From: a virus
Lineage: Duplodnaviria > Caudoviricetes
Direction: 5' to 3' (one strand)
Length of the DNA: 64,000 bases
IMG/VR virus record: IMGVR_UViG_3300021400_003144
The position numbers and the translations under genes were made by a program. This document shows positions 2,870-57,443 of this stretch, one piece after another. Under the pieces are notes generated by a model. The model ran no database searches. It was not told where the DNA came from and saw only the letters and a program-made list of their open reading frames with translations. Position 1 is the stretch's first letter, and every line of letters begins with the position of its first letter.

Positions 2870-2886
2870 CATAAATAAGGTTGATA

Positions 2887-3225
2887 GAACCCTTTTATAG
2901 GGATTAACTGATATTAGCTAAAGGTAAGCATTTGAATTTGCTCCTTTTAGCATTGGAACCCTGTTATAGGGATTGAAACATACAGCACTATACATTGCAG
3001 AAATTTTCACAGATAGAACCCTGTTATAGGGATTAAATGCTTCAGATAGATTTGTAGAAGTCTAGAATTGTATAGATAGAACCCTTGTAATAGGGATTGA
3101 GTGTTTATAGACAAGGTAGTACCTTTAGGAATATGTTTAAACCCTGTTATAGGGATTGACTTATGATTGTACAATCAACGTGTAAGTATTAAGTATTTAA
3201 ACTGAACCCTGTTATAGGGATTAGA
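2887..3225 (+). CRISPR. CRISPR mini-array 1 (6 degenerate repeats, 5 spacers)
   Basis: Repeat core (G/A)AACCCT-N5/6-AGGGATT starts at 2887, 2956, 3016, 3079, 3139 and 3204 (period 60-69). Spacers are unique. Lies next to cas10. Confidence 0.9.
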
Positions 3226-3264
3226 TACACCTTTAAATCAAATGGTTTAAAGGTGTAATTTTTT
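3226..3264 (+). terminator. Intrinsic terminator closing array 1
   Basis: TACACCTTTAAA...TTTAAAGGTGTA stem followed by a T tract. Confidence 0.8.
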
Positions 3265-3277
3265 GTGTAAAAATATG

Positions 3278-3306
3278 TTGACAAAATTATAAAAAAGTGA
3301 TATGAT
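3278..3306 (+). promoter_or_regulatory. SigmaA-type promoter for cas operon
   Basis: TTGACA-17bp-TATGAT. Confidence 0.8.
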
Positions 3307-3349: not shown

Positions 3350-5227
3350 ATGGTAGACGAAAAATGTAAAGAGCTTTATATAGCAGGTCTACTCCATGAT
3401 GTAGGTAAGTATATACATAAGACTAATGGCAATAAGGCTTCTCATGAGATATTATCTCAGTTGTTTATTTTAGATAATCCTGAGATTTGTATTGGGGCTG
3501 ATGTTGAGAAAATAGCTAACATTGTAGCCAATCATCATGACAGAGGAAAGTATGATAAAAGCTTTGTAGGAAATTTAAAGATAACTCCTGATAAAGTGGT
3601 GTCTGCTGAACTTTGTAAGAAAGCTTATGATAACTATAAGTTGGACTGCTATAAGAGTGAGATAGACATTATTAAAAAGGCTGATAGCTTATCAGCTTCA
3701 TCAGACAGAGCATCTGAGACTGGAGAGTCAGGAAATGGAACAAGTGCTCCATATGCTCCACTAATATCTCCTATTGGAAAAGTATTCAATAAGAGATTAG
3801 CAGTAAGACATGGTAATTCTTACTGTGTTTACAACTTTAGTGGGGATACTGATACTAAAGAAGTTATCATGGAGCTTGATAAGAATTGTGATGAACATAT
3901 AGAGAGTTCCTTTGAGTCTTTCATGAATGACATAAAGGCTATAAAGAGTCTGAATGACCTTGATGATATTCTGAAAAAGCATTGGTCAACTGTCAATGCC
4001 AATACATGGAGACCTAAGGGAGAATCTTTAGGAAACACAACTACTTCCTTGTATGACCATAGTAAAACTACAGCGGCTTTGGCTGTAGGGGCATATCTAA
4101 ATAAATGTGCTGGTGTGGCTGTGGATGATATGTTTGTTTACAGAGTAGTATACAATGGAAATAACAGAAGTCTTGAGGATATTGTTGATAATCTTTTGAA
4201 TGAGATTGGACTATCTCAGTTACATGTAATAAGTTCTACTGATGATGAGGTTTATGCAATTATACCTTATATAAAGTCATTAGAATTTGTAGAAGGTCTG
4301 AGTAAAGAGAACATAATATCTTTTAAGGATTTTGGAGAGACAATAGACTACTTTGTAGCTAAGCATTGGAAATTTAAGGGTTGCAGAGATTCTTTTAGAG
4401 ATAGACTTGGAGAGTGTCAGTATGGTATAACTAAAGTCTTAGGTAAAGTAGATGCAGGCATTGGAGCTGATACTTATATAGCAGATAGACTTGATAGTAA
4501 GTTTATAGGTGGCTATGTAATAGATGGTTATGACTATATACTTGAACATGTACTAACTGAGAATGACTCCATTAGTAAGCTGAGTACTACCTTTAGAATA
4601 TTTGAAGCATTTAATAGAGAAGTAACTAAACTTCTTGACAACAAGGGTAAAATGGTACTCAAGTCTGAACTTGATAAGACTATTTATTCAGCTGATAACA
4701 TTGAGGAAGTGCATAGGATTGAAGTAGAGATACAGTCAATATTTGAGAAGTACTTCGGAGATGCTACAGGGTTGTACTTTACATACTCTAAGTATGACAG
4801 ATATAGCAATACAGTAGAAATGTTGGACAGAGAATTTAATACTAGAGGTGCTAGTCTGAATATTGAGAAGAAGCTTCAGAATGGAGGTCTGTACACTACA
4901 GTTCTTATAGATACTAAGAGATATAAGATAAATAGTTTAAAGATATATAATGAATATGTTGGGTATCTGAGTAAGTGTGATAAATCCTTCTTGTATAAAG
5001 CAAAGCAGATGTATGATGAGCTGTTTAAGTATAACATTGATAAAGACCCTATACATCTTGTAGCTAAGTCAAGACTGTACTATATGAAGTCAAAGGCAGA
5101 TGGAAATAAGGTAAATGTACTTAATGAGATATATAAGTGTGCATTTGATTCTGCAAAAGGTCAGATTAGTGATAATGCATACATAATATATGAAGCATTA
5201 AAAAATGTGTTAACCAATGTGAAGTAA
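3350..5227 (+). CDS. cas10: Cas10/Csm1-like large subunit, HD nuclease motifs intact, cyclase motif degenerate
   Basis: Has AGLLHDVGK, VANHH, IKKADSLSA and SLYDHSKTTAALA (Csm1 hallmark). SISKLSTTFRIF aligns to the Palm2 SR.ATLSR region. GGDD is absent (probably VLKSELDK). Confidence 0.88.
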   Translation: MVDEKCKELYIAGLLHDVGKYIHKTNGNKASHEILSQLFILDNPEICIGADVEKIANIVANHHDRGKYDKSFVGNLKITPDKVVSAELCKKAYDNYKLDCYKSEIDIIKKADSLSASSDRASETGESGNGTSAPYAPLISPIGKVFNKRLAVRHGNSYCVYNFSGDTDTKEVIMELDKNCDEHIESSFESFMNDIKAIKSLNDLDDILKKHWSTVNANTWRPKGESLGNTTTSLYDHSKTTAALAVGAYLNKCAGVAVDDMFVYRVVYNGNNRSLEDIVDNLLNEIGLSQLHVISSTDDEVYAIIPYIKSLEFVEGLSKENIISFKDFGETIDYFVAKHWKFKGCRDSFRDRLGECQYGITKVLGKVDAGIGADTYIADRLDSKFIGGYVIDGYDYILEHVLTENDSISKLSTTFRIFEAFNREVTKLLDNKGKMVLKSELDKTIYSADNIEEVHRIEVEIQSIFEKYFGDATGLYFTYSKYDRYSNTVEMLDREFNTRGASLNIEKKLQNGGLYTTVLIDTKRYKINSLKIYNEYVGYLSKCDKSFLYKAKQMYDELFKYNIDKDPIHLVAKSRLYYMKSKADGNKVNVLNEIYKCAFDSAKGQISDNAYIIYEALKNVLTNVK

Positions 5228-5236
5228 GGAGTATAC

Positions 5237-5719
5237 ATGGACGATAATTATTTAAAGGAAATCAAGTCTGGATATACAGACAATGGTGTAGCTAAGCTGA
5301 GTCTGATTGATGGATATCCTCAGAAGTTAGCTAAGGAGTTTAATGAAGCAACTCCAATGTTGTCAACAAAGCAATCAAGAAGTATCTTTGATACTGTGAA
5401 TGGACTTGAGGTTAAGCTTCGTAGAAAGTCAGTATCATTTGATGAAGTCAAGATTGAACTTGGACTACTTAAGTCTAGAATAAATGATAAGGTTAATAAG
5501 GGAAGTATCCCTAAGGTATTCTTTGAGTTCTTTGAGGAAAATATTAAAGCCATTAAGAATGAAAAGGATTTACAGGTGTTTAAGATTCATCTTGAGTCAA
5601 TTTGTAACTATCTCAAGGATGATAAGCAGACTGGAAATAACGGAAGCTACAATAAGGGTACAGGCTATAATGGAAATTATAGACCTAGAACAAATGGATA
5701 TAATAACAATAGAAGATGA
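5237..5719 (+). CDS. csm2: Csm2 (Cas11) small subunit
   Basis: STKQSRSIFD and FKIHLESICNY match the Csm2 TxQxRxF and FxxxxExxxxY motifs. Position after cas10. Confidence 0.8.
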   Translation: MDDNYLKEIKSGYTDNGVAKLSLIDGYPQKLAKEFNEATPMLSTKQSRSIFDTVNGLEVKLRRKSVSFDEVKIELGLLKSRINDKVNKGSIPKVFFEFFEENIKAIKNEKDLQVFKIHLESICNYLKDDKQTGNNGSYNKGTGYNGNYRPRTNGYNNNRR

Positions 5720-5736
5720 AAGTGAGGATATAAATT

Positions 5737-6375
5737 ATGATTAAGGAGCAGATTAAGATTACAGGTGTACTTACAACAGAGTCAGGTATACATATTGGTG
5801 GTACTAAGTCAGACTTAGGAATTGGTTCTATGGACAATCCGGTTGTTAGAGATGCTCTTACAAATAGACCTTATATTCCTGGTTCATCCATTAAGGGAAA
5901 GATGAGAAGTATGTTTGAGCTTAGTGGTTTTGCTAAGGGCAAGACATTACCTTGTGGCTGTGGTGATAAGGATTGTATCGTATGCAAGCTCTTTGGTGCT
6001 CATAGAAATACCAAGTCTGAAGCAGGTCAGACAAGAGTAATGTTCAGAGATGCTTATTTATCACCAGAGTTTGAGAATCTTGATAACACTATTGAAGTTA
6101 AGACTGAGACAGCTATTGATAGAAGGACTGGTACAGCTCAGAATGGTTCTCTGAGACAGAGTGAGAGAGTTGCAGCAGGTGTCAATTTCAACTATGAGAT
6201 TAGCATTCTTGTATGCGATGGAGACAATGCTGATGAGCTTAGGGCTATGGTTGAGAATGGTCTTAGAATGATTGAGGCTACAGGTCTTGGTGGTAAGGTA
6301 TCAGCTGGATATGGTAAGGTTAACTTCAATATTGGTGCTGATTCTTATAAGGTAGAAACTAGGAAGTTTAATTAA
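5737..6375 (+). CDS. csm3: Csm3 (Cas7) RAMP backbone RNase
   Basis: GIHIGG, DNPVVRD (catalytic Asp position retained), PYIPGSSIKGKMRS, CIVCKLFG, EVKTETAIDR and GLGGKVSAGYG. Confidence 0.95.
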   Translation: MIKEQIKITGVLTTESGIHIGGTKSDLGIGSMDNPVVRDALTNRPYIPGSSIKGKMRSMFELSGFAKGKTLPCGCGDKDCIVCKLFGAHRNTKSEAGQTRVMFRDAYLSPEFENLDNTIEVKTETAIDRRTGTAQNGSLRQSERVAAGVNFNYEISILVCDGDNADELRAMVENGLRMIEATGLGGKVSAGYGKVNFNIGADSYKVETRKFN

Positions 6376-6387
6376 AGAGGTGTACAG

Positions 6388-7089
6388 GTGTTATATAAAA
6401 TAGAACTTCAACAGAATACGGCTACAATAGGTAATGTTGTAGCCAATACATTATTTGGGGCTTTTCTAACAGCTTATTCAACTATATATACAGTTGATAA
6501 GGACATGATAGATGATATTGTATTATCTGATTTATTTTATAATAACATCTTACCTAAGGGTGTTATTAATAATAAAACAGTGTTCTCAAAGCCTTTTGAA
6601 CATACTCAGATAGAAATGTCAAGAGCTCTTATAGCAAGAGATAATGAATCAACTAATGTTGTAAATAATACTGTTGGTAATATTGATAAGAAATGTTCAT
6701 TCTTTATTAGTACTAAGTTACTTGATAAGAATGACATTGAGGAAATAGTCAAGCTTATGTGTGAGTTTGGTATAGGCAAGTGGAGAAATGTTGGTAAAGG
6801 TCAATTTGAATTTAAGAGCATAGAGGAATATGTACCAAAGACAGATGTAAAGAGATTTGTATGTTTAAGTAGTTTTATTCCGGACTGTGATATAAACGAT
6901 TATGACATCAGTTCTTTAGGTTATACAATTAGAGATGCCTATGCTACCAATGGTATTAAACAGAAGCAGACTATAATGCTTCTGACAGGAACAAGTTTCA
7001 GAACATTCAGAGAAGTTGTTGGAAAGCATGTATATGATGAGAATAGCAATACTTATATACATGGTAAATCAATAGTGATTGGAGTTTAA
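6388..7089 (+). CDS. csm4: Csm4 (Cas5 group) RAMP, shortened
   Basis: NTLFGAF, G-rich loop GIGKWRNVGKGQF and CLSSFIP. Confidence 0.8.
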   Translation: MLYKIELQQNTATIGNVVANTLFGAFLTAYSTIYTVDKDMIDDIVLSDLFYNNILPKGVINNKTVFSKPFEHTQIEMSRALIARDNESTNVVNNTVGNIDKKCSFFISTKLLDKNDIEEIVKLMCEFGIGKWRNVGKGQFEFKSIEEYVPKTDVKRFVCLSSFIPDCDINDYDISSLGYTIRDAYATNGIKQKQTIMLLTGTSFRTFREVVGKHVYDENSNTYIHGKSIVIGV

Positions 7090-7717
7090 GATGGTTTATA
7101 GATTAGAAAAACTTATTTCAAGTGGAGAAAAAGCAACTAAGGATTTAGGTATTCTTAGCAATATGATATCTAATGCAGAGAATGTGCATGGAATCCTTGG
7201 AGAGCTTTTTAACTTAGAGAATGAGCAGAACTGGAGAGCTAATCATCATATTTTATACAGAAGAGAGACAAATAAGACTTGTGAATTTATTGTTAGATCT
7301 GATGTAGAAATTGATATGAATAAGGCTAAAGAGCTTGGTTTCAGTGTAAAGACAGAAAAAGAAGTTCCAATGACTGGTGTTGTAAAAATCAGACTTGCAG
7401 CGGCTACCTTTAGAACAGAGAAAGGCTCATCAAGTCGTAATAGAAAAGCTATTAAGCTTCAGGATGATAGAATTAACTGGATTAAGTATAAGTTATCCAG
7501 TAAGGGTGAATGTGAAGTTTATGATGTAAATGAAGTAGGCAAGGTAATGAATTTCATGTCTCATAAGGATACAGCTAATGGGCAGGTAATGCTTGAGGGT
7601 TATGATTATGAGGTTAGTCTTAAGGTCAAGGATTCAGAAGGGTTTAAAAAGCTTGTAGAGAATGGTGTAGGACCCAATAAAAACTATGGGTTTGGAATGA
7701 TAGTCTGTAGTGAATAA
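7079..7717 (+). CDS. cas6: Cas6 family crRNA-processing endoribonuclease, Cas6e/Cse3-like
   Basis: C-terminal GVGPNKNYGFGM glycine loop, ILYR segment and INWIKYK resemble Cas6e. Last gene before array 2. Confidence 0.75.
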   Translation: MEFKMVYRLEKLISSGEKATKDLGILSNMISNAENVHGILGELFNLENEQNWRANHHILYRRETNKTCEFIVRSDVEIDMNKAKELGFSVKTEKEVPMTGVVKIRLAAATFRTEKGSSSRNRKAIKLQDDRINWIKYKLSSKGECEVYDVNEVGKVMNFMSHKDTANGQVMLEGYDYEVSLKVKDSEGFKKLVENGVGPNKNYGFGMIVCSE

Positions 7718-7763
7718 TGATAGTGATTGAACAGAATTAACCTAGACTTATGTAGTCTAGGTT

Positions 7764-8147
7764 AAACCCTTATAATGGGGATTGTATATTGAAAGCATAT
7801 AAGTTTATGAATGCTCTTCCAATTAGAACCCTTATACAGGGATTAAATGTTGATGAACTCTTCCATTTCGTTGAAGGGTTTGAGAGAACCCTTGTGACAT
7901 GGATTGATACATTTGATTCTCCTTTATTCTCTATGTAGAGAACCCTTGTGACAGGGATTGATACATTTGGTAGTGACTTTAATTCTTTAAGCAATGAATA
8001 TCTGAACCCTTGTAATAGGGATTGAATTACTTTGATTTTAGCAATAAACTCAATACTTAGATCTAGAACCCTTTAATAGGGATTGCATTAAAAGCTTTTC
8101 TGCTAGTTACATTACAATATAGGGAGAACCCTTTTATAGGGATTGTA
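7764..8147 (+). CRISPR. CRISPR mini-array 2 (7 repeats, 6 spacers)
   Basis: Repeat starts 7764, 7826, 7886, 7940, 8004, 8066 and 8126 (period 54-64). Confidence 0.9.
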
Positions 8148-8168
8148 TTAAGCATAGGAGGTGTATAT

Positions 8169-8876
8169 TTGAATAGAATTTTAAAAATAATAGTCATAAC
8201 TATCTTTAGTTTTATTGGAATATCAGTAATGAGCATAATTCTTTTAATAGGTGGAATACAGCTATTTGTACTCGGATACAACGGAAGTATTCCTGATGTT
8301 GAAGAGAGACCAAAGATTATTGCTCATGAACTAGGGAAGAAATACGGAGATAAGTTCGAAGTACTTAGTTGTGAGCAAGTAAATCTTGGTAGTTACAAGG
8401 TTGCTAAGCACGCAAATATTGGTGAGGCTAAGTGTTTGTCAGATGGAATTAAGTTTAATTATCAAGTAGATTTGAGATGTAGAAAAGATTTATGTGATAA
8501 TTACATTGGATTATTGAATGAACCAGTAATAATGGAGGATATAAAAGAGTTATTAAATGAGAATAACTTAGAAGAATATTTTTATAACTTAGAATTAGAT
8601 ATGAATTATTCATATGAAGCAAAGACATTAGCTGAGTATAAAGAAGATGAAAACATAGTAGTAAAAGTTGATACAGAGGTATATGATTCTGAGGATGCAG
8701 AAAACTATTATAGACTTTTTCATTTATTAAAGGACAATGGGTATGTATTTGATGCTAAGTTAAGAGACAGTGATAATAAAACATATCTAAGTGGTAGACC
8801 TTCAGATACAGATAAAGAAGCATATATAACTGAAGAAAGATTCAGGAATAAAATGGAAGATATAGGAATATACTAA
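8169..8876 (+). CDS. Membrane-anchored hypothetical protein located between arrays 2 and 3
   Basis: N-terminal TM, KKYGDKFEV motif. AGGAGG RBS lies about 10 nt after the last repeat. Confidence 0.75.
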   Translation: MNRILKIIVITIFSFIGISVMSIILLIGGIQLFVLGYNGSIPDVEERPKIIAHELGKKYGDKFEVLSCEQVNLGSYKVAKHANIGEAKCLSDGIKFNYQVDLRCRKDLCDNYIGLLNEPVIMEDIKELLNENNLEEYFYNLELDMNYSYEAKTLAEYKEDENIVVKVDTEVYDSEDAENYYRLFHLLKDNGYVFDAKLRDSDNKTYLSGRPSDTDKEAYITEERFRNKMEDIGIY

Positions 8877-8902
8877 TGGTGATTTAGTATGTTCTGTGAT
8901 AA

Positions 8903-9049
8903 GAACCCTTTTATAGGGATTGATACTTGTAAATTTTATTCAACATACACATTTTAGAAATATTCGTGCTGAACCCTTTTATAGGGATTGTATAATCATA
9001 ACTTCAGAGTTTTCAAGGGCACAGTTTGAACCCTTTTATAGGGATTGGT
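8903..9049 (+). CRISPR. CRISPR mini-array 3 (3 repeats, 2 spacers)
   Basis: GAACCCTTTTATAGGGATTG at 8903, 8971 and 9028. Confidence 0.88.
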
Positions 9050-9056
9050 GAGCTAT

Positions 9057-9193: not shown

Positions 9194-11431
9194 ATGAGAG
9201 TACTTTTATTACTTAGAGGAGCTCCTGGGTGTGGAAAATCAACATTTATTGATTATAATGGTCTTAGACCTTATGCATTATCTGCTGATGAAATTAGGTT
9301 ACTGTGTCAATCTCCTCAGCAAACACCTGATGGTTCTGTTCAGATTGGGGTAAATCATGAGGAAAAGACCTGGCGTATCTTATTTGATTTGCTTGAAGCT
9401 CGTATGGAGAGTGGAGAGTTTACTATTATAGATGCTACGAACTCTAAAACATCTGAAATGAACAGATATAAAGAGATGGCAGATACATACAGATATAGAA
9501 TGTACTGTGTAGATTTTACAGACTTGCCTATTGAAGAGTGTAAAAGACGTAATGCAGGCAGAGAGCCTCTTAAGAGAGTTCCTGATGAAGCAATAGACAA
9601 GATGTATGCTAGGTTTAAGACTCAGAAGATACCTAGTGGTATCAAGGTAATTAAGCCTAGTGAACTTAGTACAATCTGGATGAAGCCTATTGACTTCTCT
9701 AAGTATAATAAGATAGTTCATATTGGAGATATACATGGATGCTATACAGCTTTAAAGGAATACTTTGATAAGAATGATATAGCTGATGAAAATACCTTTT
9801 ATATCTTTACTGGAGATTATATAGACAGAGGTATTGAGAATGTGGAAGTTATGAATTTCCTCTTTGAAGCAGCTAAGAGAAAGAATGTATTTCTTCTTGA
9901 GGGAAATCATGACAGATCTATTCAGATTTATGGTCATGGTGGTGCTTCAAGAAACAAAGAGTTCGAGTTTGGAACTAGGAAGCAGTTCGAGGATGCTCAT
10001 ATAGATACCAAGGAGCTTAGAAATCTTTATAGAAGATTTGGACAGTGTGCTTATTATACATATGATGATAAGACAGTGCTGGTATGCCATGGTGGAGTAG
10101 CTACTGTTCCTGATAACATAACTAAGTTAGCTACATGTCAGTTAATTAATGGTGTAGGCAAGTTTAGTGATGCAGATACTGTTGAAGATACTTGGATGAA
10201 CACTACTGAGAATAATATGTATCAGATACATGGACATAGAAATACTAAAATGAGTCCTATACAGTCAAGAGATAGAGTGTTTAATCTTGATGGTGCTGTA
10301 GAACATGGTGGTGAGCTTAGAATAGTAGAGCTTACTCATGATGGGTTTAAGTGTATAGGTATTAAGAATACAGTCTTTGCAGAAGATGCAAGCTTAGAGA
10401 ATATGTCTGAGTCAAGTGAGGTTGGAGCAAATGATACTGTAGCTGACTTGATTCTTAAGCTGAGAGCTGATAAAAAGAACATTGAAGAAAAGAACTTTGG
10501 ACATATAAGTTCCTTTAACTTTACAAGAGATGCCTTTATAAACAAAGATAATTGGAATAGCAGAACTGTAAAAGCTAGAGGCTTATATATTGATGTAGAT
10601 AAGCAGAAGATTGCAGCTAGGTCATTTGATAAGTTCTTTAATGTAAATGAAATGCCATTTACTAAGTTTGATATGCTTAAGAACAAGCTTAAATTCCCAG
10701 TGAAAGCCTATGTAAAAGAAAATGGTTTCCTAGGTATTGTAGCATATGATGAATATGGTGACTATGAGGATAACCTGATTGTAACAAGTAAGTCAAGCAT
10801 AACTGGAGATTTTTCAGGCTGGTTAAGAGATATGCTGAACAGAAAGACAGAGTATGATACTCGTAAGAAGATGGCTGAGTTCTGTAAGGCTAATGATTGT
10901 AGCTTGGTATTTGAATGTGTAGACATGGGTAATGACCCTCATATCATTGAATATCCTGAGTCTGAGCTGTATCTGCTTGCTTGTGTAAATAATGAGATTG
11001 AGTTCAAGCAGATGAGCTATAATAAGCTTGAGAAGTTAGGAAGAGAGCTTGGACTTAAGGTTAAGACATTGGCTTATACTCTTAATAATTGGAGTGAGTT
11101 CTATGATTGGTATACAGAGGTCAATGCTGATGACTATAAGTTTAATGATAGAATCATTGAGGGTTTTGTAATTGAAGATGCTTCAGGATTTATGACAAAG
11201 ATTAAGCTTAGCTACTATCAGTTCTGGAAACACATGAGAGCTGTAGCTAGAGAAACATTACGCTATGGTTATATAAGAAAAACTGGTGCATTGACAGATG
11301 AAACATCTAATATGTTCTATGGATTCTGTAGAAATCTATATAATGAGGCAGGAAGTCCTGTTATGAGAGACCTTATACCTAGAGATATAGTCTATCTCAG
11401 AAAGAGATTCTATGATAGTTTAAAGAAGTAA
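9194..11431 (+). CDS. Polynucleotide kinase / metallophosphatase / RNA ligase fusion (Pnkp-like RNA repair)
   Basis: P-loop GAPGCGKS and DATN. Phosphoesterase motifs GDIHG, GDYIDRG, GNHD, HGG and HGH. Ligase motifs KENGFLG, EGFV and KIK. Confidence 0.9.
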   Translation: MRVLLLLRGAPGCGKSTFIDYNGLRPYALSADEIRLLCQSPQQTPDGSVQIGVNHEEKTWRILFDLLEARMESGEFTIIDATNSKTSEMNRYKEMADTYRYRMYCVDFTDLPIEECKRRNAGREPLKRVPDEAIDKMYARFKTQKIPSGIKVIKPSELSTIWMKPIDFSKYNKIVHIGDIHGCYTALKEYFDKNDIADENTFYIFTGDYIDRGIENVEVMNFLFEAAKRKNVFLLEGNHDRSIQIYGHGGASRNKEFEFGTRKQFEDAHIDTKELRNLYRRFGQCAYYTYDDKTVLVCHGGVATVPDNITKLATCQLINGVGKFSDADTVEDTWMNTTENNMYQIHGHRNTKMSPIQSRDRVFNLDGAVEHGGELRIVELTHDGFKCIGIKNTVFAEDASLENMSESSEVGANDTVADLILKLRADKKNIEEKNFGHISSFNFTRDAFINKDNWNSRTVKARGLYIDVDKQKIAARSFDKFFNVNEMPFTKFDMLKNKLKFPVKAYVKENGFLGIVAYDEYGDYEDNLIVTSKSSITGDFSGWLRDMLNRKTEYDTRKKMAEFCKANDCSLVFECVDMGNDPHIIEYPESELYLLACVNNEIEFKQMSYNKLEKLGRELGLKVKTLAYTLNNWSEFYDWYTEVNADDYKFNDRIIEGFVIEDASGFMTKIKLSYYQFWKHMRAVARETLRYGYIRKTGALTDETSNMFYGFCRNLYNEAGSPVMRDLIPRDIVYLRKRFYDSLKK

Positions 11432-16420: not shown

Positions 16421-18718
16421 ATGAGCAAGACATTAGACTTTAGTAAAGATAAGGAGCTTATAAGACAGGATAGTACTGGTGAATATATAGAAGTAACATT
16501 AAATGTTAAGAAAGCTTTTGGAAAAGGTCGGTTATATAGTGATGGTAGCATGCTGATAGAAGAAGGACACTATAAAGCATGTGTACCTAGTGCAAATGAA
16601 GTATTCAAAAAGGCATACAGAAGTGACTTAGGTTTAAATGCAGATTCTGATGGTGATATTAAAAATATAAGAGTTGGAAGTGCATCAGGAGCAGCTAATA
16701 TCTTAGTGGGTGGTTTAAGTTCAGGTTATATTGTTTGGAAAGACAAGAAAGATAGGATTGTAGACTTTTATAGAGATACACATAATGAAAAAAGTGAAAC
16801 ACCTAAGAAAAGAGTAATTGCAGAGGTATTAGACCAAAAACCTCGTAGAAAGAATATAGGAACAGAAGGAAAGCCTTTAGAGACACTTGTAAATCCTGAT
16901 GTAAAGCAGATATTAGGTGATAAAGTTCATCTTGAAGAAGGTGATGAACTTACATGGTATAGAGATGCAAATATAAATATAATATGGCATACAGATGGCT
17001 CCTGTGATTTATTTGAGAGGGAGCACATAGGGATTTGTGGGGCTGTCTTTAGGATAGTGTATGGACACTGGAGAGGTAAGGGTGAGCATGGTTCTGGAAT
17101 GGAGCCTCAGCATTGGATATATAAAGGTATCAAAGTTTCTGATATTTTAAATGTTTATCCTAATTTTTGGAAAGCATGCGAAAATAGCCTAGATTATGGA
17201 GATAACACAGAAGCTGAGGATAACAGGAGTTATGAAATGGGCAGAACAAGCAATAAAGAAGCAGTTGATAAAGAAGGTGTAACTAAAGAAGCTGTTAGGC
17301 AACCTAAGTATTACTATGAGTCAACTAGGCTAAAATATAGAACAACAAATTCTGATGTACAATGCAGTGCTGTTAGAGATATTAATAAGATAAAAAGTCA
17401 ACTGTTTTATGAAGGTAGCAATAGCAATCAAGACACACCTTGGAAAATAGCAGAAGATATGATAGACCTACTTCCAGAAAGTGTATGGAATCCTCATACA
17501 AAGTTCTTAGACATCTATTGTAAGAGTGGTATATTCTTAGAAGTTATAAAGAATACACTTAAAGATAAATGTTATGAACAGTATAGAGAAATGGGATTAG
17601 CAACAGATACAGAGATAAACAAGTATATATTTGAGAATCAATTATATGGATTATGTTGGTCAAAAAGAAATTATGAATATACAGCTGAGAGTTTATTCAT
17701 GGTTAGAAGTCCTATGAATAGCTATAATATAAAGAAGTTAAGTGAAGTACTTAAGGCAGAAGAAAATACAGAAATATTAAAAGATGAACATGACGGAAAT
17801 ACGGATGAATACATAAAGAGAGATTATGTAACATTGGGATTGATTAAGAAATACAGGAAAAAGAATGAATATACAGGAGAAGATGAAATGACAATAGATG
17901 TAGTAGTAGGAAATCCGCCATATAACAAAGATATATACATTGACTTTGTAGAGAATGGGCATAAGATTGCAAGACAATACTGCTGTTTCATAACACCTGC
18001 CAAGTGGCAAGCCAAAGGTGGAGAAAAGAACGAGTCATTTCGTAAGAATATAGTTCCTCACATGAGTAAGATCGTTTATTATCCTAACACACCAGATGTA
18101 TTCTTTATAGGGGAAGCTGCTGGAATATCAGCATACAGAATAGATAAAGAAATATATGAAAAGAAAAAATTAGTTGTTAAAAGTAGCATACCAATTCTTA
18201 GGGGTAGCTGTGAGTTAACACATGATATGCCATTAGATATATGTGGGTGGAATATTATTAACAAAGTAAAAGGAAAAAGGATGTCTCTCAAAAATTATAA
18301 CACTGATAAGAAGTATAAAGTTTGGGTTAATAATCTTGTTGGACTTAGTGGTGGAGGCGGAGATTGGCACACATGTCTGTTTTCCAGAGACGGAAAGACT
18401 AATTTTTTAGGGAAGGTATCTTTATCAACATGTCTAGAAGAAGAAAAGAAAATGACTTTTAATCAGAAATGCTGTTTTTCATCAGACACTAAGATAGCAT
18501 GTGAAGCATTTAAGGCATATATATATACAAGGCTAGTTAGATTCTTACTTTATATAGGAAGGTGTGGTAACTCTGTAACAAATGATGAGACATGGCGTTT
18601 CGTCCCCGATCCAGGTGCATTTGACCACATCTTCACCGACCAAGAGTTATACACTAAATATAAATTGACTCAAGAAGAAATCAATGTAATTGAGTCAGTT
18701 ATAAAGGAGCGTAAGTAA
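16421..18718 (+). CDS. Eco57I-like N6-adenine DNA methyltransferase with N-terminal DUF4357-like domain
   Basis: Motif I FLDIYCKSG, motif IV VVGNPPYN, ITPAKW and C-terminal WRFVPDP...FTDxELY. N-terminal SASGAA..GGLSSGYIVWKD resembles DUF4357. Confidence 0.82.
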   Translation: MSKTLDFSKDKELIRQDSTGEYIEVTLNVKKAFGKGRLYSDGSMLIEEGHYKACVPSANEVFKKAYRSDLGLNADSDGDIKNIRVGSASGAANILVGGLSSGYIVWKDKKDRIVDFYRDTHNEKSETPKKRVIAEVLDQKPRRKNIGTEGKPLETLVNPDVKQILGDKVHLEEGDELTWYRDANINIIWHTDGSCDLFEREHIGICGAVFRIVYGHWRGKGEHGSGMEPQHWIYKGIKVSDILNVYPNFWKACENSLDYGDNTEAEDNRSYEMGRTSNKEAVDKEGVTKEAVRQPKYYYESTRLKYRTTNSDVQCSAVRDINKIKSQLFYEGSNSNQDTPWKIAEDMIDLLPESVWNPHTKFLDIYCKSGIFLEVIKNTLKDKCYEQYREMGLATDTEINKYIFENQLYGLCWSKRNYEYTAESLFMVRSPMNSYNIKKLSEVLKAEENTEILKDEHDGNTDEYIKRDYVTLGLIKKYRKKNEYTGEDEMTIDVVVGNPPYNKDIYIDFVENGHKIARQYCCFITPAKWQAKGGEKNESFRKNIVPHMSKIVYYPNTPDVFFIGEAAGISAYRIDKEIYEKKKLVVKSSIPILRGSCELTHDMPLDICGWNIINKVKGKRMSLKNYNTDKKYKVWVNNLVGLSGGGGDWHTCLFSRDGKTNFLGKVSLSTCLEEEKKMTFNQKCCFSSDTKIACEAFKAYIYTRLVRFLLYIGRCGNSVTNDETWRFVPDPGAFDHIFTDQELYTKYKLTQEEINVIESVIKERK

Positions 18719-18756
18719 TATGTATTAATAATTAATTTATACATAGAATAAAAAGA

Positions 18757-18838
18757 GTACCCCTTATAATGGGGATTGAATATATTTTTTATACAGCTCT
18801 TCATCTGTGAAAATAGAACCCTCGTTGGGGATTGAATT
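18757..18838 (+). CRISPR. CRISPR mini-array 4 (2 repeats, 1 spacer)
   Basis: GTACCCCTTATAATGGGGATTGAA at 18757 and GAACCCTCGTTGGGGATTGAA at 18816, separated by a 35-nt spacer. Confidence 0.85.
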
Positions 18839-20134: not shown

Positions 20135-21484
20135 TTGAATATGAGTATTATTAATTTTGAAAATAGGACAAGGTGGATACGTGATTATAACATAGCTAAG
20201 ACTTGTACGCCTATCAAAATAGCAAGAGATATGGTAAGTTTAATTGATGAAAAGTATTTCAATCCAGATTCAAAGTTTTTAGACATATATTGTAAGTCTG
20301 GAACAATACTTGAAGCCATAAAAGATAGATTAATGGATTCTAAAAGTATGATTGAAGCTTTTCCAAGTCAAAGAGATAGATATTATCATGTATTAGAACA
20401 TCAGATATATGGATTAGTATGGGAAGATGTAGGCATTAATTGTGAAGAAATGTCTAATATAAATGTATTTGGTACATATGTAAATAGTAACATAAAGATG
20501 TTTAAAATAGCTTCAAAGAATAAAAAAGACGCATATAAGATATTGGATAATATAACATTTTTTAAGGATGAGATACAGAAGATTTTTGGAGAAAAGGATA
20601 TGAAGTTTAACATAGTAGTTGGAAATCCACCATATAACAATGATGCATATCTTGACTTTGTTAAAGCAGGTTATCAACTTTCAACTCAGTATAGTACATT
20701 TATAACTCCTGCTAAATGGCAGGCTAAGGAGGGGTACAAGAATGAGCAGTTCAGAGAGACCATAGTTCCTCATATGAGCAAGATAGTTTATTATCCAGAT
20801 TGCGTTGATGTATTTGGAATATCAGAATTAGGTGGAATTTCTTATTACACAATTGATAAAAATAATATACACGATACTAAAGATATAATAAATAAATGCG
20901 AACTCCAACCTTTACTAAATAGCAGTATGAACAGGGAAATAAATAGTACCCTTTGGAATAGTGCACAAAGCATAATAGAAAAAATAAAAAGCAGTGATGA
21001 TTATAAATTATATGTATTACAGGACATAAAACAAAATAGAAAAACTTGTACAATAAACATAAATAAGCAAATTCCTACAGAGCGTAGTCATATATGGGAT
21101 TGGAATAATTCATGTATAGACCCAAAGTATGTAGGTCATGGTGGTTGCTTACTAAATAAAAATGATGGTAGTACACCATTACTTGGCAGAGCAAAATTTT
21201 TAAGGCATGCTGAAAATGGCTCAGGTACTTCAATAAATATATTTACATCAGATAGTGAACTTGAATGTAGGTCATTTACATCATGGGTTTACAGTAAGTT
21301 TATAAGATTTTTATTAATAATAGCATTATGCAGTAACTCAGTAATGAATGATATTACGTGGCGTTTTGTACCAGACCCTGGTAAATTTGACCACATATTT
21401 ACAGATAAAGAACTTTATGAAAAATACAATCTGACAGAAGATGAAATCAATATCATTGAGTCAATAATTAAGGAGCGTAAGTAA
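20135..21484 (+). CDS. Eco57I-like N6-adenine DNA methyltransferase, paralog of 16421-18718
   Basis: FLDIYCKSG, VVGNPPYN, ITPAKWQAK, IVPHMSKIVYYP and WRFVPDPGKFDHIFTD...IKERK. Confidence 0.85.
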   Translation: MNMSIINFENRTRWIRDYNIAKTCTPIKIARDMVSLIDEKYFNPDSKFLDIYCKSGTILEAIKDRLMDSKSMIEAFPSQRDRYYHVLEHQIYGLVWEDVGINCEEMSNINVFGTYVNSNIKMFKIASKNKKDAYKILDNITFFKDEIQKIFGEKDMKFNIVVGNPPYNNDAYLDFVKAGYQLSTQYSTFITPAKWQAKEGYKNEQFRETIVPHMSKIVYYPDCVDVFGISELGGISYYTIDKNNIHDTKDIINKCELQPLLNSSMNREINSTLWNSAQSIIEKIKSSDDYKLYVLQDIKQNRKTCTININKQIPTERSHIWDWNNSCIDPKYVGHGGCLLNKNDGSTPLLGRAKFLRHAENGSGTSINIFTSDSELECRSFTSWVYSKFIRFLLIIALCSNSVMNDITWRFVPDPGKFDHIFTDKELYEKYNLTEDEINIIESIIKERK

Positions 21485-22267: not shown

Positions 22268-23494
22268 TTGATTATGGATAACAACATTGATTATGAGAGT
22301 GAACTTGTTGACAAACTTATTGATGCAGTTTTCTTTGATGAGAATAAGACAAATACATCTGATAAGAATGATAAAGTATCTGAAGCAGAACACTCAGATA
22401 ATTCTGATAAAGCAAAAGAAGCTGATAAAGCAAAAGAAGCTGATAAAGCAAAAGAAGCTGATAAAGTAAAAGAGGCTGAGCATTCAGATAAATCAGATGA
22501 AGCAAGCAAGGCTGAAGAAACAAATGCATCTGACAAGGCTAAAGAAGCTGTTATAGCTGATGAAGTAAGACAGTTAACAGATGAGCAAACAGAACAAATA
22601 ATAAATGCTCTTGCAGATAAGATAGCTAATGGAGATAGAGCTGATATTCTAAAGCAGATAGCTAAGAAAGTGAATGAGATAAACCTTGAAAATCAGTGGG
22701 AATATACTCCTAATGAAAGTACAGGTGAGTTTAATACAAAAGATTTATATGAAGATTCTACTATAACAGCTGCTAGAGACATATTAAATAAATCTCATAG
22801 ACTCCTTATATTAGGAAGTACAGGTACTGGAAAGACAGAGTTAGCTTATCTGTTAGCTCATAAGTTTACTGGTGAAGCTGTTGCTAGTGGAGATATTAAG
22901 CTGTCAAAAGTATGTGTTATAAATGCTAGAGATGGTAAGAGCATATGGGTAGATGATGTTAACACTGAGAGATATGTAGGTGAACTAAATAGATTTAATG
23001 AGTATATAAAGAAAAATAATGAAACAGCAAGTGATGAGGCTGAGACTTGTAAATATGTGCTCATATGCAATGAAATACAGGCAAGTGATGCAGGGTATTT
23101 GTTAGGAAGTCTTTGGGAAGATGCAAATAACTCTGAAAAGAAGCTTAATAAACTTGAGGATAACCTTTATATAATCTTTACTGCTTGTACTGACCAGGAT
23201 TTTGGTATAGATGACCAGATTAAACAAAGAATAAACAGTGTTGATGTTGGTTATATAAGTAGTAAGTATCAAGATAAGCATAAAAAGATAGTTGAAGCTT
23301 ATAAAGATAAATGTAGTAACATTGAAGAAATACTTAATAACATTGAATATATAAATGATAAAGAAGAGTATTCAATTATAACTATGAGAAAGTTTATGGG
23401 TTTATTAAATGGTGAGGGTATAGAGTTCAGTGATTATATAAAAGAAACCTATAAAGATGAGGTTAGTAAAATAAAAATTAAGCAAGCAGGGTAG
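22268..23494 (+). CDS. McrB-like AAA+ NTPase with degenerate motifs
   Basis: LLILGSTGTGKT Walker A, YVLICNEIQ (cf. IIDEIN), NLYIIFTACTDQ (cf. NLYIIGTMNTAD) and IDDQIKQR. Confidence 0.7.
   Translation: MIMDNNIDYESELVDKLIDAVFFDENKTNTSDKNDKVSEAEHSDNSDKAKEADKAKEADKAKEADKVKEAEHSDKSDEASKAEETNASDKAKEAVIADEVRQLTDEQTEQIINALADKIANGDRADILKQIAKKVNEINLENQWEYTPNESTGEFNTKDLYEDSTITAARDILNKSHRLLILGSTGTGKTELAYLLAHKFTGEAVASGDIKLSKVCVINARDGKSIWVDDVNTERYVGELNRFNEYIKKNNETASDEAETCKYVLICNEIQASDAGYLLGSLWEDANNSEKKLNKLEDNLYIIFTACTDQDFGIDDQIKQRINSVDVGYISSKYQDKHKKIVEAYKDKCSNIEEILNNIEYINDKEEYSIITMRKFMGLLNGEGIEFSDYIKETYKDEVSKIKIKQAG
22404..22475 (+). repeat. 18-bp tandem repeat x4 (DKAKEA) in McrB-like linker
   Basis: CTGATAAAGCAAAAGAAG units; the fourth copy is diverged. 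Confidence 0.9.
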
Positions 23495-27916: not shown

Positions 27917-28254
27917 AGTGAACCCTTGCAATAGGGATTGAATCTGTACCATACATTTCATTTACTTGCTCTATAGAGTGAACCCTTGCAATAGGGATTG
28001 AATTTTATAATAATGCTCTATGCATTCATTATAATTTAGTGAACCCTTACAATAGGGATTGAATTTATCACCGTTATCGTCGCTGTCGTAATCCTTGGAG
28101 TGAACCCTTGTAATAGGGATTGAATTGTTAGAAAACAAATTATTGACTGTTAATTATTAAAAGTGAACCCTTGTAAATAGGGATTGGATTTATTTTCTAA
28201 GTTTTTAAATATGCTATTAGGTCTATAAGCGAATCCTTGTGATAGGGATTGAAT
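27917..28254 (+). CRISPR. CRISPR array 5 (6 repeats, 5 spacers), best conserved
   Basis: AGTGAACCCTTGCAATAGGGATTGAAT (27 nt) at 27917 and 27977, with variants at 28038, 28099, 28162 and 28228. Spacers are 33-38 nt. Degeneracy increases toward the 3' end. Confidence 0.95.
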
Positions 28255-28313
28255 AGAAAAGAACTTGAGTCTAACAGGGTATTAAAAACAATTAGTGAGG
28301 TACAAATTTAATT

Positions 28314-55396: not shown

Positions 55397-56356
55397 ATGA
55401 AGAAAAAAATCTATGACGTAATTAAGGTAACAGTATTAAGCACAGCTATTTTTTCACTAGCTTCAATTTCAACAGTATTTGCAGGAACATGGAGACAGAA
55501 CGAAAGTGGCTGGTGGTATGACAACGGAGATGGTACATTTCCTAATAACACTTGGCAGTGGATAGATGGAAACAATGATGGAGTTGCTGAGTGTTACTAT
55601 TTTTATGCTAATGGTTTAATGGCTGCTAACACAGTAACACCTGATGGTTACACAGTTAATACAGATGGAGCATGGACAGTAGACGGAAAGGTTCAGGCAA
55701 AGCATTTAAGTGGTCAGACACCAAGTTCAACAGGCTCAGCAAATGCAAATCATCAAAAGACATTGCAGGAACTCTATAATGAGAACTTTGCTAATGGAAC
55801 CTTTATTGATTATAGCAATGGTGCAAGCACTGGTATCACTGGCTTAGGTGACTCTGACTCAAGTTCAAGTTCAAGTGATGTAGAAGTTAAGTCTCTTGAA
55901 GAGTATTCAGAGTCAGAGCTTTATAAGATGATTACAGGCTCTTATGACTCTAAGACAGACCCTACAAAGGGATACAGTAATGATGAAGCTATAGACGCTG
56001 TAGTATATTTGGTAAACATTCTTAGAAGCAAGAAAGGTTTAAATGAAGTAGTAGCTGACAATACCCTCATGGAAGCAGCACAGGTGAGAGCAGAAGAGGC
56101 AACTGAGAAGTTTTCACATACAAGACCTGATGGAAGTGATTGCTTTACAGCTCTTGATGAGGCCGGATGGCCTCAGGATACACACGCTGCTGAGAACTTA
56201 GCACAGGGTCAGAAAACTGCAATGCAAGTAATGAATGCTTGGTATCACAGTAGTGGTCATAAGCATAACATGCTTCATGAAAAGAATGGTACAATAGGTG
56301 TTGGAATTACAGGAAGTGGCTATTCTACAACATGGTCACAGTTCTTCTCAGAATAA
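55397..56356 (+). CDS. Secreted cell-wall-binding repeat + CAP/SCP domain protein
   Basis: Signal peptide, GWWYDNGDG..WQWIDGNNDG..YYF, FSHTRPDG, AENLA and WYHSSGHKHNM. Confidence 0.88.
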   Translation: MKKKIYDVIKVTVLSTAIFSLASISTVFAGTWRQNESGWWYDNGDGTFPNNTWQWIDGNNDGVAECYYFYANGLMAANTVTPDGYTVNTDGAWTVDGKVQAKHLSGQTPSSTGSANANHQKTLQELYNENFANGTFIDYSNGASTGITGLGDSDSSSSSSDVEVKSLEEYSESELYKMITGSYDSKTDPTKGYSNDEAIDAVVYLVNILRSKKGLNEVVADNTLMEAAQVRAEEATEKFSHTRPDGSDCFTALDEAGWPQDTHAAENLAQGQKTAMQVMNAWYHSSGHKHNMLHEKNGTIGVGITGSGYSTTWSQFFSE

Positions 56357-56435
56357 CTTTTAAACTATAAGTTGGTTGACTGGTTCTGTTAATAGAACCA
56401 GTCATAATTTTTTTTTGAAAGGTAGTTTTAAGGTT

Positions 56436-57443
56436 ATGAGAAAATTAAGTTTAGCATTAAGTACAGTAATTCTTTCAGTAGTATCAATTTCAACAGCATT
56501 TGCAGGTTCTTGGAAACAGGACACATTAGGTTGGAAATACATTAATGATGATGGTTCAGACTTAAAGAGTCAGTGGGCTTGGATAGATGGAAACAATGAC
56601 GGTATAGCAGAGTCTTATTACTTCGATGAAAGAGGCTATATGGCTGCCAACAGGGATGTAGGTGGCTATTGGGTAAATGCAGATGGACAGTGGGTTGATA
56701 TGTACGGAACTGTACAGACAAAGGTTGTAAATAACAATATGCCTATTGCTCCTGTAACTCAGACAGGAAACACCAGTACAGGCAATATTTATGACAATAT
56801 GTCAATTGCGGAATTGTGTAATGTTCTTAACAATCTTCAAATGGGAACTCAGGAATGGTTTACAGTTAATGAAATATTAAACAATAAAATAAATACAGAA
56901 AAACAAAATAAAGCAACTGAATATGATAACATGGATTATGATGATTTAAAGCAGATAGTCACAGATTCATGCATGGCAGGCACTCCTAATCTTCAAGCTA
57001 TGGAAGCTTTGTCAAGAGCTGATGCAGCAGGAAAATGGAAAACAAGTAAAAAGGGTATGGCAATGAATTACAATACTGATATTAATGAAATGAGAGAATA
57101 CATTCTCGATAAAATCAATGAATATCGTGCAGAAAAGGGCAGAACCTTACTTGAGCTGGATGATGAGCTAACTGATTATGCTCAGACAAGAGCAGAAGAA
57201 GCTGATATAAAATTCAGTCATACAAGACCTGATGGCTCAAACTGTCTTGACGAACTTTGGGAGATGTATCCAAATCATATTATGAATGAAAACCTTGCAA
57301 CAGCATTTGCTTACAAAGATGTAGCAAAATCATGGTATAACAGCAAAGGTCATAAGAAAAATATGCTTGATAGCAGAATTGATAGATGCGGTATCGGTAT
57401 ATATAACGATACTTTCGCTTTTATTGGTTTACAGGATAAATAA
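56436..57443 (+). CDS. Secreted cell-wall-binding repeat + CAP/SCP domain protein, tandem paralog
   Basis: Same motifs. Start moved to ATG 56436 because the track start lies in a hairpin. Confidence 0.85.
   Translation: MRKLSLALSTVILSVVSISTAFAGSWKQDTLGWKYINDDGSDLKSQWAWIDGNNDGIAESYYFDERGYMAANRDVGGYWVNADGQWVDMYGTVQTKVVNNNMPIAPVTQTGNTSTGNIYDNMSIAELCNVLNNLQMGTQEWFTVNEILNNKINTEKQNKATEYDNMDYDDLKQIVTDSCMAGTPNLQAMEALSRADAAGKWKTSKKGMAMNYNTDINEMREYILDKINEYRAEKGRTLLELDDELTDYAQTRAEEADIKFSHTRPDGSNCLDELWEMYPNHIMNENLATAFAYKDVAKSWYNSKGHKKNMLDSRIDRCGIGIYNDTFAFIGLQDK

Follow-up and report, generated by a model that had tools for sequence, protein, structure and literature searches.

The window considered here is a stretch of 64,000 nucleotides from the virus record IMGVR_UViG_3300021400_003144 (Duplodnaviria; Caudoviricetes), part of the 283-kb scaffold of an element from a gut or rumen metagenome that has been called giant and phage-like. 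Between positions 3350 and 7717 it carries five intact open reading frames (ORFs), all on the + strand and in the order cas10-csm2-csm3-csm4-cas6e, which appear to encode a reduced type III CRISPR effector of the Csm kind together with a Cas6e processing enzyme. The initial annotation, made from the sequence alone, had proposed a five-gene operon behind a strong promoter, and both the ORFs and the promoter were recovered. A terminator hairpin, which ends the repeat array lying upstream, stands immediately ahead of this promoter. The features of the operon are the following:

3226-3264, + strand: intrinsic terminator-like hairpin (14 bp) and T-run ending array A
3278-3306, + strand: promoter TTGACA-17-TATGAT with an upstream TG (11/12, the top-scoring site of the region)
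3350-5227, + strand: cas10, 625 aa (Pfam HD 5.9e-8; Csm1 fold)
5237-5719, + strand: csm2 (Cas11 small subunit), 160 aa (PF03750, TIGR01870)
5737-6375, + strand: csm3 (sole Cas7), 212 aa (TIGR02582)
6388-7089, + strand: csm4 (Cas5), 233 aa, shorter than usual (TIGR01903, PADLOC Csm4)
7091-7717, + strand: cas6e, 208 aa from the ATG at 7091, with an alternative TTG at 7079 (PF08798, PADLOC Cas6e)

On the evidence of its motifs and predicted fold, Cas10 is a compact Csm1 whose HD site is intact and whose cyclase site is dead. Its N-terminal part matches the Csm1 model TIGR02578 at 3.9e-19, with 68.8 bits against a cutoff of 170, below the equivalog threshold. The AlphaFold2 model of the protein (pLDDT 88.8, pTM 0.89) contains both Palm folds and a helical C-terminal domain (residues 488-622), and it matches III-A Csm1 chains over the full length (Foldseek, 9ash_A, E 9e-16, TMq 0.64). 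The HD motifs had been annotated as intact and, indeed, residues H16, D17, H32, H62, H63, D112 and D119 are invariant among 27 aligned Cas10 homologues. The GGDD motif is missing from all 27, the window copy having S-E-L-D-K instead. The cyclase region had initially been described as eroded. The strings on which that description was based are present, with 'GGYVIDGYDY' at the Palm2 beta1 position and 'VLKSELDKTIY' at the GGDD position, but since GGDD is missing in every member, its loss is a trait of the lineage and not a local decay of this copy. In a profile alignment, 'SISRTATFSR...IYAGGDDLF' of the S. epidermidis Cas10 aligns with 'SiSklaTtlR...essldkciy' of the family. The GGDD strand reads V-x-x-S-x-[LF]-[DS]-x-C-x-Y in all members, without a conserved acidic pair, and the position of the Palm2 beta1 Asp is occupied by D, N or T across the family, with no conserved Asp.

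The identities proposed for the subunits were upheld by HMM matches, and for Cas10 by the structure prediction as well. The operon holds one separate Csm2, one RAMP/Csm3 gene and one Csm4. Csm2 matches PF03750 (4.9e-11, 43.8 bits for a cutoff of 24.8) and TIGR01870 (31.7 for a cutoff of 30.6). Csm3 passes the III-A equivalog TIGR02582 with 182 bits (cutoff 90), and its D33, which in an alignment falls on the catalytic D33 of StCsm3 (S. thermophilus), is invariant across nine orthologues and outgroups, so that the catalytic Asp is kept, as first annotated. Csm3 is 68-72% identical between loci whose Cas10 proteins are ~40% identical, which points to purifying selection. A four-Cys knuckle (C73/C75/C80/C83) is likewise invariant in the family and outgroups and is probably a zinc site. 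The nearest PDB match is the M. jannaschii Csm3 (4qts), which bears a comparable Cys-rich insert. Csm4 scores 47.3 bits against TIGR01903 (1.7e-12), just under the cutoff of 55, and is matched by the PADLOC Csm4 model at 1.6e-15; the position of its gene agrees with this assignment.

The last protein had been called Cas6e-like, and it is of the I-E kind. It scores 56.1 bits against PF08798 (cutoff 25) and 1.5e-17 against the PADLOC Cas6e model, and 34.7 against TIGR01907, under the equivalog cutoff of 45.2. Among 17 sequences, His33 in NVHxxLGxLF and the G-loop GxGPxKxYGFG are invariant, and the glycine-rich loop aligns to CasE; the context of His33 presumably resembles that of H20 in the E. 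coli CasE. With an alignment-based query we recovered 15 orthologues, which form a tight clade of their own; a word-based homologue search with Cas6e alone returned only the query.

Models for Cas1, Cas2, Csm5, Csm6 and CARF proteins matched none of the 74 other ORFs of the window and the 6.6 kb upstream, and the Cascade genes (Cse1, Cse2, Cas7e and Cas5e) and Cas3 were found neither in the operon nor among these ORFs. The initial statement that csm5, csm6, cas1 and cas2 are lacking therefore holds over these ~70 kb, but the absence of Cas1 and Cas2 applies to this copy only, one relative (L002) having Cas2e-Cas1e. Since Palm2 has neither GGDD nor a conserved beta1 Asp and no CARF or Csm6 gene lies nearby, no cyclic oligoadenylate (cOA) is expected to be made.

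The effector genes were thus all confirmed, but the initial annotation did not mention the CRISPR arrays, which amount to at least 27 repeats in the window and 16 more upstream. The repeat consensus GTGAACCCTTGYAATAGGGATTGAAT has 26 + strand pattern matches in the window, for 0.05 expected by chance, and a 27th copy was found at ~28164 by self-BLAST. They make up eight units, mini-arrays or solitary, each of which lies in an intergenic gap on the coding strand:

2883-3227, + strand: mini-array A, 6 repeats and 5 spacers, degenerate repeats
7761-8149, + strand: mini-array B, 7 repeats and 6 spacers, directly 3' of cas6e
8899-9051, + strand: mini-array C, 3 repeats and 2 spacers
18755-18815, + strand: solitary repeat with one spacer
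27917-28255, + strand: array E, 6 repeats and 5 spacers, with the best-conserved repeats (GTGAACCCTTGCAATAGGGATTGAATT)
29324-29413, + strand: mini-array F, 2 repeats and 1 spacer, ending just ahead of the ribosome-binding site (RBS) of ORF 29437
31138-31165, + strand: solitary repeat G
31779-31806, + strand: solitary repeat H

The additional array of 16 repeats lies 1.9-2.8 kb upstream of the window start (L001 3818-4747), also on the coding strand. Repeats of ~27 nt recur with a spacing of ~60 nt. Each opens with a 5-nt leader, continues with a 4-bp stem (CCCU/AGGG) closing a loop of 4-7 nt, and ends in AUUGAAUN, a layout that matches the type I-E repeat. Conservation of the hairpin was scored by a per-repeat stem test; the variable loop length misaligns the 5' arms in column-based covariation. 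By this test, 103 of the 109 repeats of six loci have a fully paired 4-bp stem directly before AU..., against ~20 in shuffles. Few stem changes are truly compensatory (swapped partners pair at 0.87, against 0.92). As no + strand terminator separates cas6e from array B, this array is probably co-transcribed with the operon. Repeat scans gave a single chance match in IMG/VR, inside the ORF of a small phage, and 92 single matches in the JGI metagenomes, about the chance expectation, with arrays in 0 of the 80 loci screened.

Around array B we also noticed a 12-bp perfect hairpin (7737-7765) right after the cas6e stop, touching the first repeat and devoid of a + strand T-run, which perhaps acts in RNA stability or processing. 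An ORF of 235 aa (8169-8876) without a family match separates arrays B and C; its RBS begins right after the last repeat of array B, and its position is not conserved in the relatives.

The five-gene module is a small, sharply bounded family carried on metagenomic contigs of 110-430 kb. Its Cas10 homologues, of ~620 aa, number 38 at 90% clustering, and several of them are found on contigs of 230-430 kb. In an exhaustive Cas10 profile search of 1.84 billion representatives, 11 clusters (50% identity) scored above 370 bits and two intermediates ~160 bits, while ordinary Cas10s stayed below 80 bits. No Cas10 relative was found in 185,579 species genomes or in IMG/VR. The order cas10-csm2-csm3-csm4-cas6e is kept in four relatives, namely L002 (396 kb), L004 (a Hadza human-gut contig of 425 kb), L005 (112 kb) and L089, the deepest branch of the family, and the module is conserved among members whose Cas10 is down to ~33% identical to that of the window. 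In these four loci csm5 is absent and an array of related repeats lies directly downstream; ordinary arrays of at least 12 repeats occur after cas6e in relatives. L002 additionally encodes Cas2e-Cas1e (PADLOC 9.4e-85). A conserved sixth gene after the arrays was considered as a candidate substitute for Csm5 and ruled out, the downstream ORFs of four loci being unrelated.

The nearest outgroup Cas10s are compact too (660-720 aa), with HD present and GGDD absent. Their loci (L007, L008 and L091) have the order cas6-cas10-csm2-one RAMP-csm4 with a conventional Cas6 (PF10040), csm5 is found in none of them, and one has an ordinary Cas1-Cas2 upstream. In a quick IQ-TREE phylogeny of Cas10 (SH-aLRT support only, midpoint root), the family linked to Cas6e forms one clade with a support of 100 and a long stem. 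The sister group of this clade is P0041/P0042 (support 98), associated with a conventional Cas6 or Cas2, and other GGDD-less lineages branch between those two and the canonical GGDD-bearing Csm1 clade. Our reading of this tree is that the Csm5-less, signalling-dead core would be older and that the processing and adaptation module was later exchanged for one of the I-E type.

A further locus, on a 374-kb contig of an uncultured Clostridia metagenome-assembled genome (L065 7350-14900), is a full-size III-A locus without csm5. It encodes Csm1 (449 bits), Csm2, Csm3, Csm4, Cas1, Cas2 and Cas6, with 14 repeats of 36 nt. No GGDD string was found in its Cas10 by regex search, and its close relative L009 has GGDD. 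Loss of csm5 may be common on large Clostridia-linked elements.

What do the spacers target? The window is AT-rich (~31% GC), every sizeable ORF lies on its + strand, and it has a strong purine skew. The element has ~45 spacers and its relatives have ~80. In 90 spacers from five loci, purines make up 0.46 of the bases, whereas the + strand around them has 0.58 (Mann-Whitney p = 6e-26), as expected if most guides are antisense to the purine-rich transcripts of similar elements. One spacer, that of the solitary unit (18781-18815), has a recognisable relative: read in reverse complement, it codes for IFTDEELYKKY and matches the 3' ends of the two Eco57I-type methyltransferase genes on either side of it, at 25/35 and 27/35 nt, where the best chance match of any other spacer is ~22/32. 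The two methyltransferase genes that flank it (16421-18718 and 20135-21484) are orphans and share the C-terminal motif IFTD[QK]ELY. The resident copies mismatch the spacer at 8-10 of its 35 positions, and since it is the reverse complement that matches these genes, the + strand guide would be antisense to the mRNA of a third allele. Apart from this near-match, no self-target was found in the window. Matches in phage records were at the chance level, all matches in the fetched related loci were repeat-to-repeat, and a metagenome scan with the core of the methyltransferase spacer returned nothing, not even its own element.

We think it fairly probable, though far from assured, that the locus encodes a reduced Csm-type type III interference module on a giant phage-like element, used for transcript-guided attack on competitors without cOA signalling. 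This agrees in its essentials with the initial annotation, which had proposed a compact mobile-element effector cutting target RNA without cOA-dependent host dormancy. The steps below are suggested by the conserved residues and by what is known of III-A systems. The mini-arrays would be transcribed along with the flanking genes, and Cas6e would cut the hairpin repeats at the 3' base of the stem, each cut yielding a CRISPR RNA (crRNA) whose spacer of ~33-35 nt is preceded by an 8-nt 5' handle (AUUGAAUN). Cas10-Csm4 would bind the handle, and copies of Csm3, the single Cas7, and of Csm2 would coat the guide. Once the guide pairs with a complementary transcript, most likely that of a related element in competition with this one, Asp33 of Csm3 would cut the RNA in 6-nt steps and the HD domain of Cas10 would be activated to cut nearby ssDNA. 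As no cOA would be made, targeting would proceed without a dormancy or suicide response harmful to the element itself. Complex assembly, the cleavage activities, the lack of cOA and the choice of target are all predicted here by analogy.

Several observations weigh against this proposal. Despite the loss of GGDD, the Palm2 motif D-S-I-S-K-x-x-T-x-x-R (residues 406-416; SxSKxxTxxR) is invariant across the family; this may reflect a structural role, or a residual nucleotide binding or non-canonical chemistry. Both Cas10 and Csm4 score under the curated III-A model cutoffs. The cas search spans ~70 kb of the 283-kb scaffold, and csm5, csm6 or cas1 may lie elsewhere or be supplied by the host. Many repeats near the operon have variable 5'-handle bases, which could impair crRNA loading. 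The size of the composition shift suggests that only ~70% of the spacers are antisense, and no near-perfect protospacer was found in phage records, related loci or the metagenome scan.

A bolder version of the scheme, which we regard as possible but doubtful, gives Cas6e a structural role. It would stay on the 3' hairpin and cap the Csm3 filament in place of Csm5, forming a Cascade-like complex on untrimmed crRNAs with a fixed length of ~61 nt, and since the arrays sit within operons, making crRNAs would at the same time cleave polycistronic mRNAs of the element itself. A complex prediction for Csm3 and Cas6e gave a score of 0.07, which counts neither way on binding. If this version holds, giant phages would have evolved a natural chimera, with the architecture of type I-E and the chemistry of type III, that excludes rivals without abortive signalling.

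The arrangement of the repeats could also be taken to mean that they and Cas6e serve as operon punctuation, processing polycistronic mRNAs and tuning the flanking cassettes, with spacers that are mostly incidental and a Csm-like complex that is secondary. All repeats are indeed on the coding strand and intergenic, several are solitary (18755, 31138 and 31779), some end just ahead of an RBS (8140 for ORF 8169, 29404 for ORF 29437), and their sequences are heterogeneous, only the hairpin and AUU(G) being conserved. We nevertheless find this unlikely, given the ordinary arrays of at least 12 repeats after cas6e in relatives, one of which has Cas1e/Cas2e, the regular spacer lengths (~33-35 nt), the antisense composition bias together with one spacer antisense to a homologous gene, and the strong conservation of the catalytic residues of the effector.

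Just as improbable, in our estimation, is a role in counter-defence or host takeover, in which the crRNAs would be aimed at host transcripts, from defence or housekeeping genes, and not at competing elements. Huge phages have been reported with spacers against host genes (PMC7162821), and most spacers here have no identified target. However, the sole spacer with a recognisable relative points to a methyltransferase of the element type, and the purine bias of the spacers mirrors the strand composition of the element itself.

Slightly less credible still is an incomplete system, neither minimal nor signalling-free, that would need Csm5, a Csm6/CARF effector or Cas1-Cas2 in trans, encoded by the host or by another part of the 283-kb element. 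Sharing of components in trans is known for type III loci (PMC11229360), and the partial coverage of the scaffold by the cas search leaves room for such genes. But with GGDD gone a CARF effector would have nothing to sense, the csm5-less module is conserved down to ~33% Cas10 identity and occurs in sister lineages as well, and the 185,579 species genomes hold no relative of this Cas10. A decaying remnant without current function would account for the degenerate repeats flanking the operon, the absence of Cas1 and Cas2 and the short Csm4, but it is very improbable for five intact ORFs behind a consensus promoter, with catalytic residues invariant in the family and a Csm3 that is ~70% identical among distant members.

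A reduced Csm-type interference module, the reading that we prefer, has to be placed among the known systems. The likeness to III-A systems (S. epidermidis, S. thermophilus, L. lactis) lies in the Csm1 fold, the Csm3 model and D33, the Csm2 model, which is passed, and the gene order cas10-csm2-csm3-csm4. Unlike these, the window system is devoid of Csm5, Csm6 and GGDD, and no cOA is expected from it; its Cas10 is ~130 aa shorter than III-A Csm1 and fails the Csm1 equivalog cutoff. Furthermore, Cas6e stands in place of Cas6, the repeats, of ~27 nt where III-A has 36 nt, are hairpins like those of I-E, and the adaptation genes of the relative are Cas1e/Cas2e. By profile and motif, the system is outside III-A for want of Csm5, of GGDD and of a Cas10 above the Csm1 model cutoff, although its subunits are III-A-like.

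Subtype III-F has an HD nuclease, no cyclase motifs and no cOA effectors, with a single Cas7 and separate Cas11 and Cas5 (PMC11229360, PMC8036902). The window system is alike in these descriptive features: HD present, cyclase dead, one Cas7, separate Cas5 and Cas11, and no effectors nearby. However, III-F loci are usually without arrays, cas6 and adaptation genes (PMC12669027), whereas the window family has Cas6e, arrays and sometimes Cas1e/Cas2e, and III-F is listed with 'DNA?' targeting whereas the window Csm3 keeps its RNase Asp. NCBIfam and PADLOC gave no III-F-specific model match, and the likeness to the prototype, Thermotoga lettingae Tlet_0097-0100, is by description only. With III-H and III-G the system shares a reductive evolution, with an inactivated Palm, an active HD, loss of CARF effectors and few subunits (PMC12669027; PMC10910872). 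But in III-H Cas11 replaces the C-terminal domain of Cas10 and Cas7 is without the catalytic Asp, where the window system encodes Csm2 separately, keeps D33 and shows a complete Cas10 C-terminal domain in the model, and III-G has Csx26 and is specific to Sulfolobales; the window system fits neither. Its likeness to type I-E resides in a Cas6e above the PF08798 threshold, in the repeat layout and in the Cas2e-Cas1e of L002, but it has no cse1, cse2, cas7e, cas5e or cas3, and its Cas6e is under the TIGR01907 cutoff.

CRISPR systems are well known from huge phages and mobile elements, and so are their compact arrays, their loss of adaptation genes and their attacks on rivals (PMC7162821, PMC11656645). 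The present case resembles them in its very large extrachromosomal contig, its lack of adaptation genes, its compact arrays and the apparent targeting of a related element. In the viral mini-arrays described so far, the repeats match the system of the host; this element, by contrast, has an effector and a processing enzyme of its own. A literature search, with the 2022 Cell survey of virus-encoded CRISPR-Cas outside its scope, found no type III effector encoded with Cas6e and I-E adaptation genes. The HD-active, cyclase-dead profile with one Cas7 is already known from III-F and III-H, as is CRISPR on mobile elements. What is new is the cross-type module swap, the very compact Cas10, and the Csm5-less design with Cas6e and in-operon mini-arrays.

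If our proposal is correct, the family would represent a natural route for paring down a type III effector for life on a mobile element, in which the cOA alarm is lost and RNA-guided cutting of RNA and DNA is kept. This alarm would kill or arrest the cell on which the element depends, and losing the abortive arm would suit an element that needs a live host. The sister lineages combine a conventional Cas6 with Cas1/Cas2, and the lineage of the window combines Cas6e with Cas1e/Cas2e; the whole module for processing and adaptation seems to have been swapped between CRISPR types, which makes the family a test case for the interchangeability of class 1 modules and for the dispensability of Csm5 when Cas6e is present. 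With ~1,440 aa in five small genes, it would be a compact signalling-free type III effector, potentially useful for RNA-guided targeting. Mini-arrays scattered inside operons, including one whose spacer is directed at an allele of the neighbouring methyltransferase genes, fit warfare between related giant elements in gut and rumen communities.

The replicon itself looks like a giant extrachromosomal element, either a phage or a giant plasmid, with a phage-like gene content. The mobile-element setting initially assigned to the locus is borne out by the large contigs of the family and the phage-like neighbouring genes; these neighbours, together with the lack of any relative in the species genomes, argue that the module is not chromosomal. 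Neither virion nor housekeeping genes were found among the 70 kb of the window and upstream region, and no phage or plasmid record is similar at the DNA level. A kinase-phosphatase-Rnl1 ligase fusion (window 9194-11431), a short way downstream of the type III module, matches the phage family phrog_8238 end to end (1e-210), and a Thg1-like enzyme, a primase, orphan methyltransferases, a STAND NTPase, an AriA/PtuA-like ATPase and CAP-domain proteins with choline-binding repeats are also encoded in these 70 kb.

RNA-repair genes adjoin the type III module in distant relatives too (L002 3772-9610; L004 2601-8570), and in both of these Tpt1 (PF01885), a metallophosphatase and RtcB lie directly upstream of cas10. 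Either an anti-defence region with conserved synteny or a functional link may explain why RNA repair and the type III module are neighbours. The window has further genes of a defence-like or host-interaction kind at 62428-63720, 22268-23494 and 55397-57443 (an AriA/PtuA/GajA-type ATPase, the STAND NTPase and two CAP-domain proteins with choline-binding repeats), and a DarG-like match was obtained among the window genes, its ORF not being pinpointed. Finally, a serpin gene is found upstream of the window (L001 5595-6872), and the sister system in L007 also adjoins a serpin.

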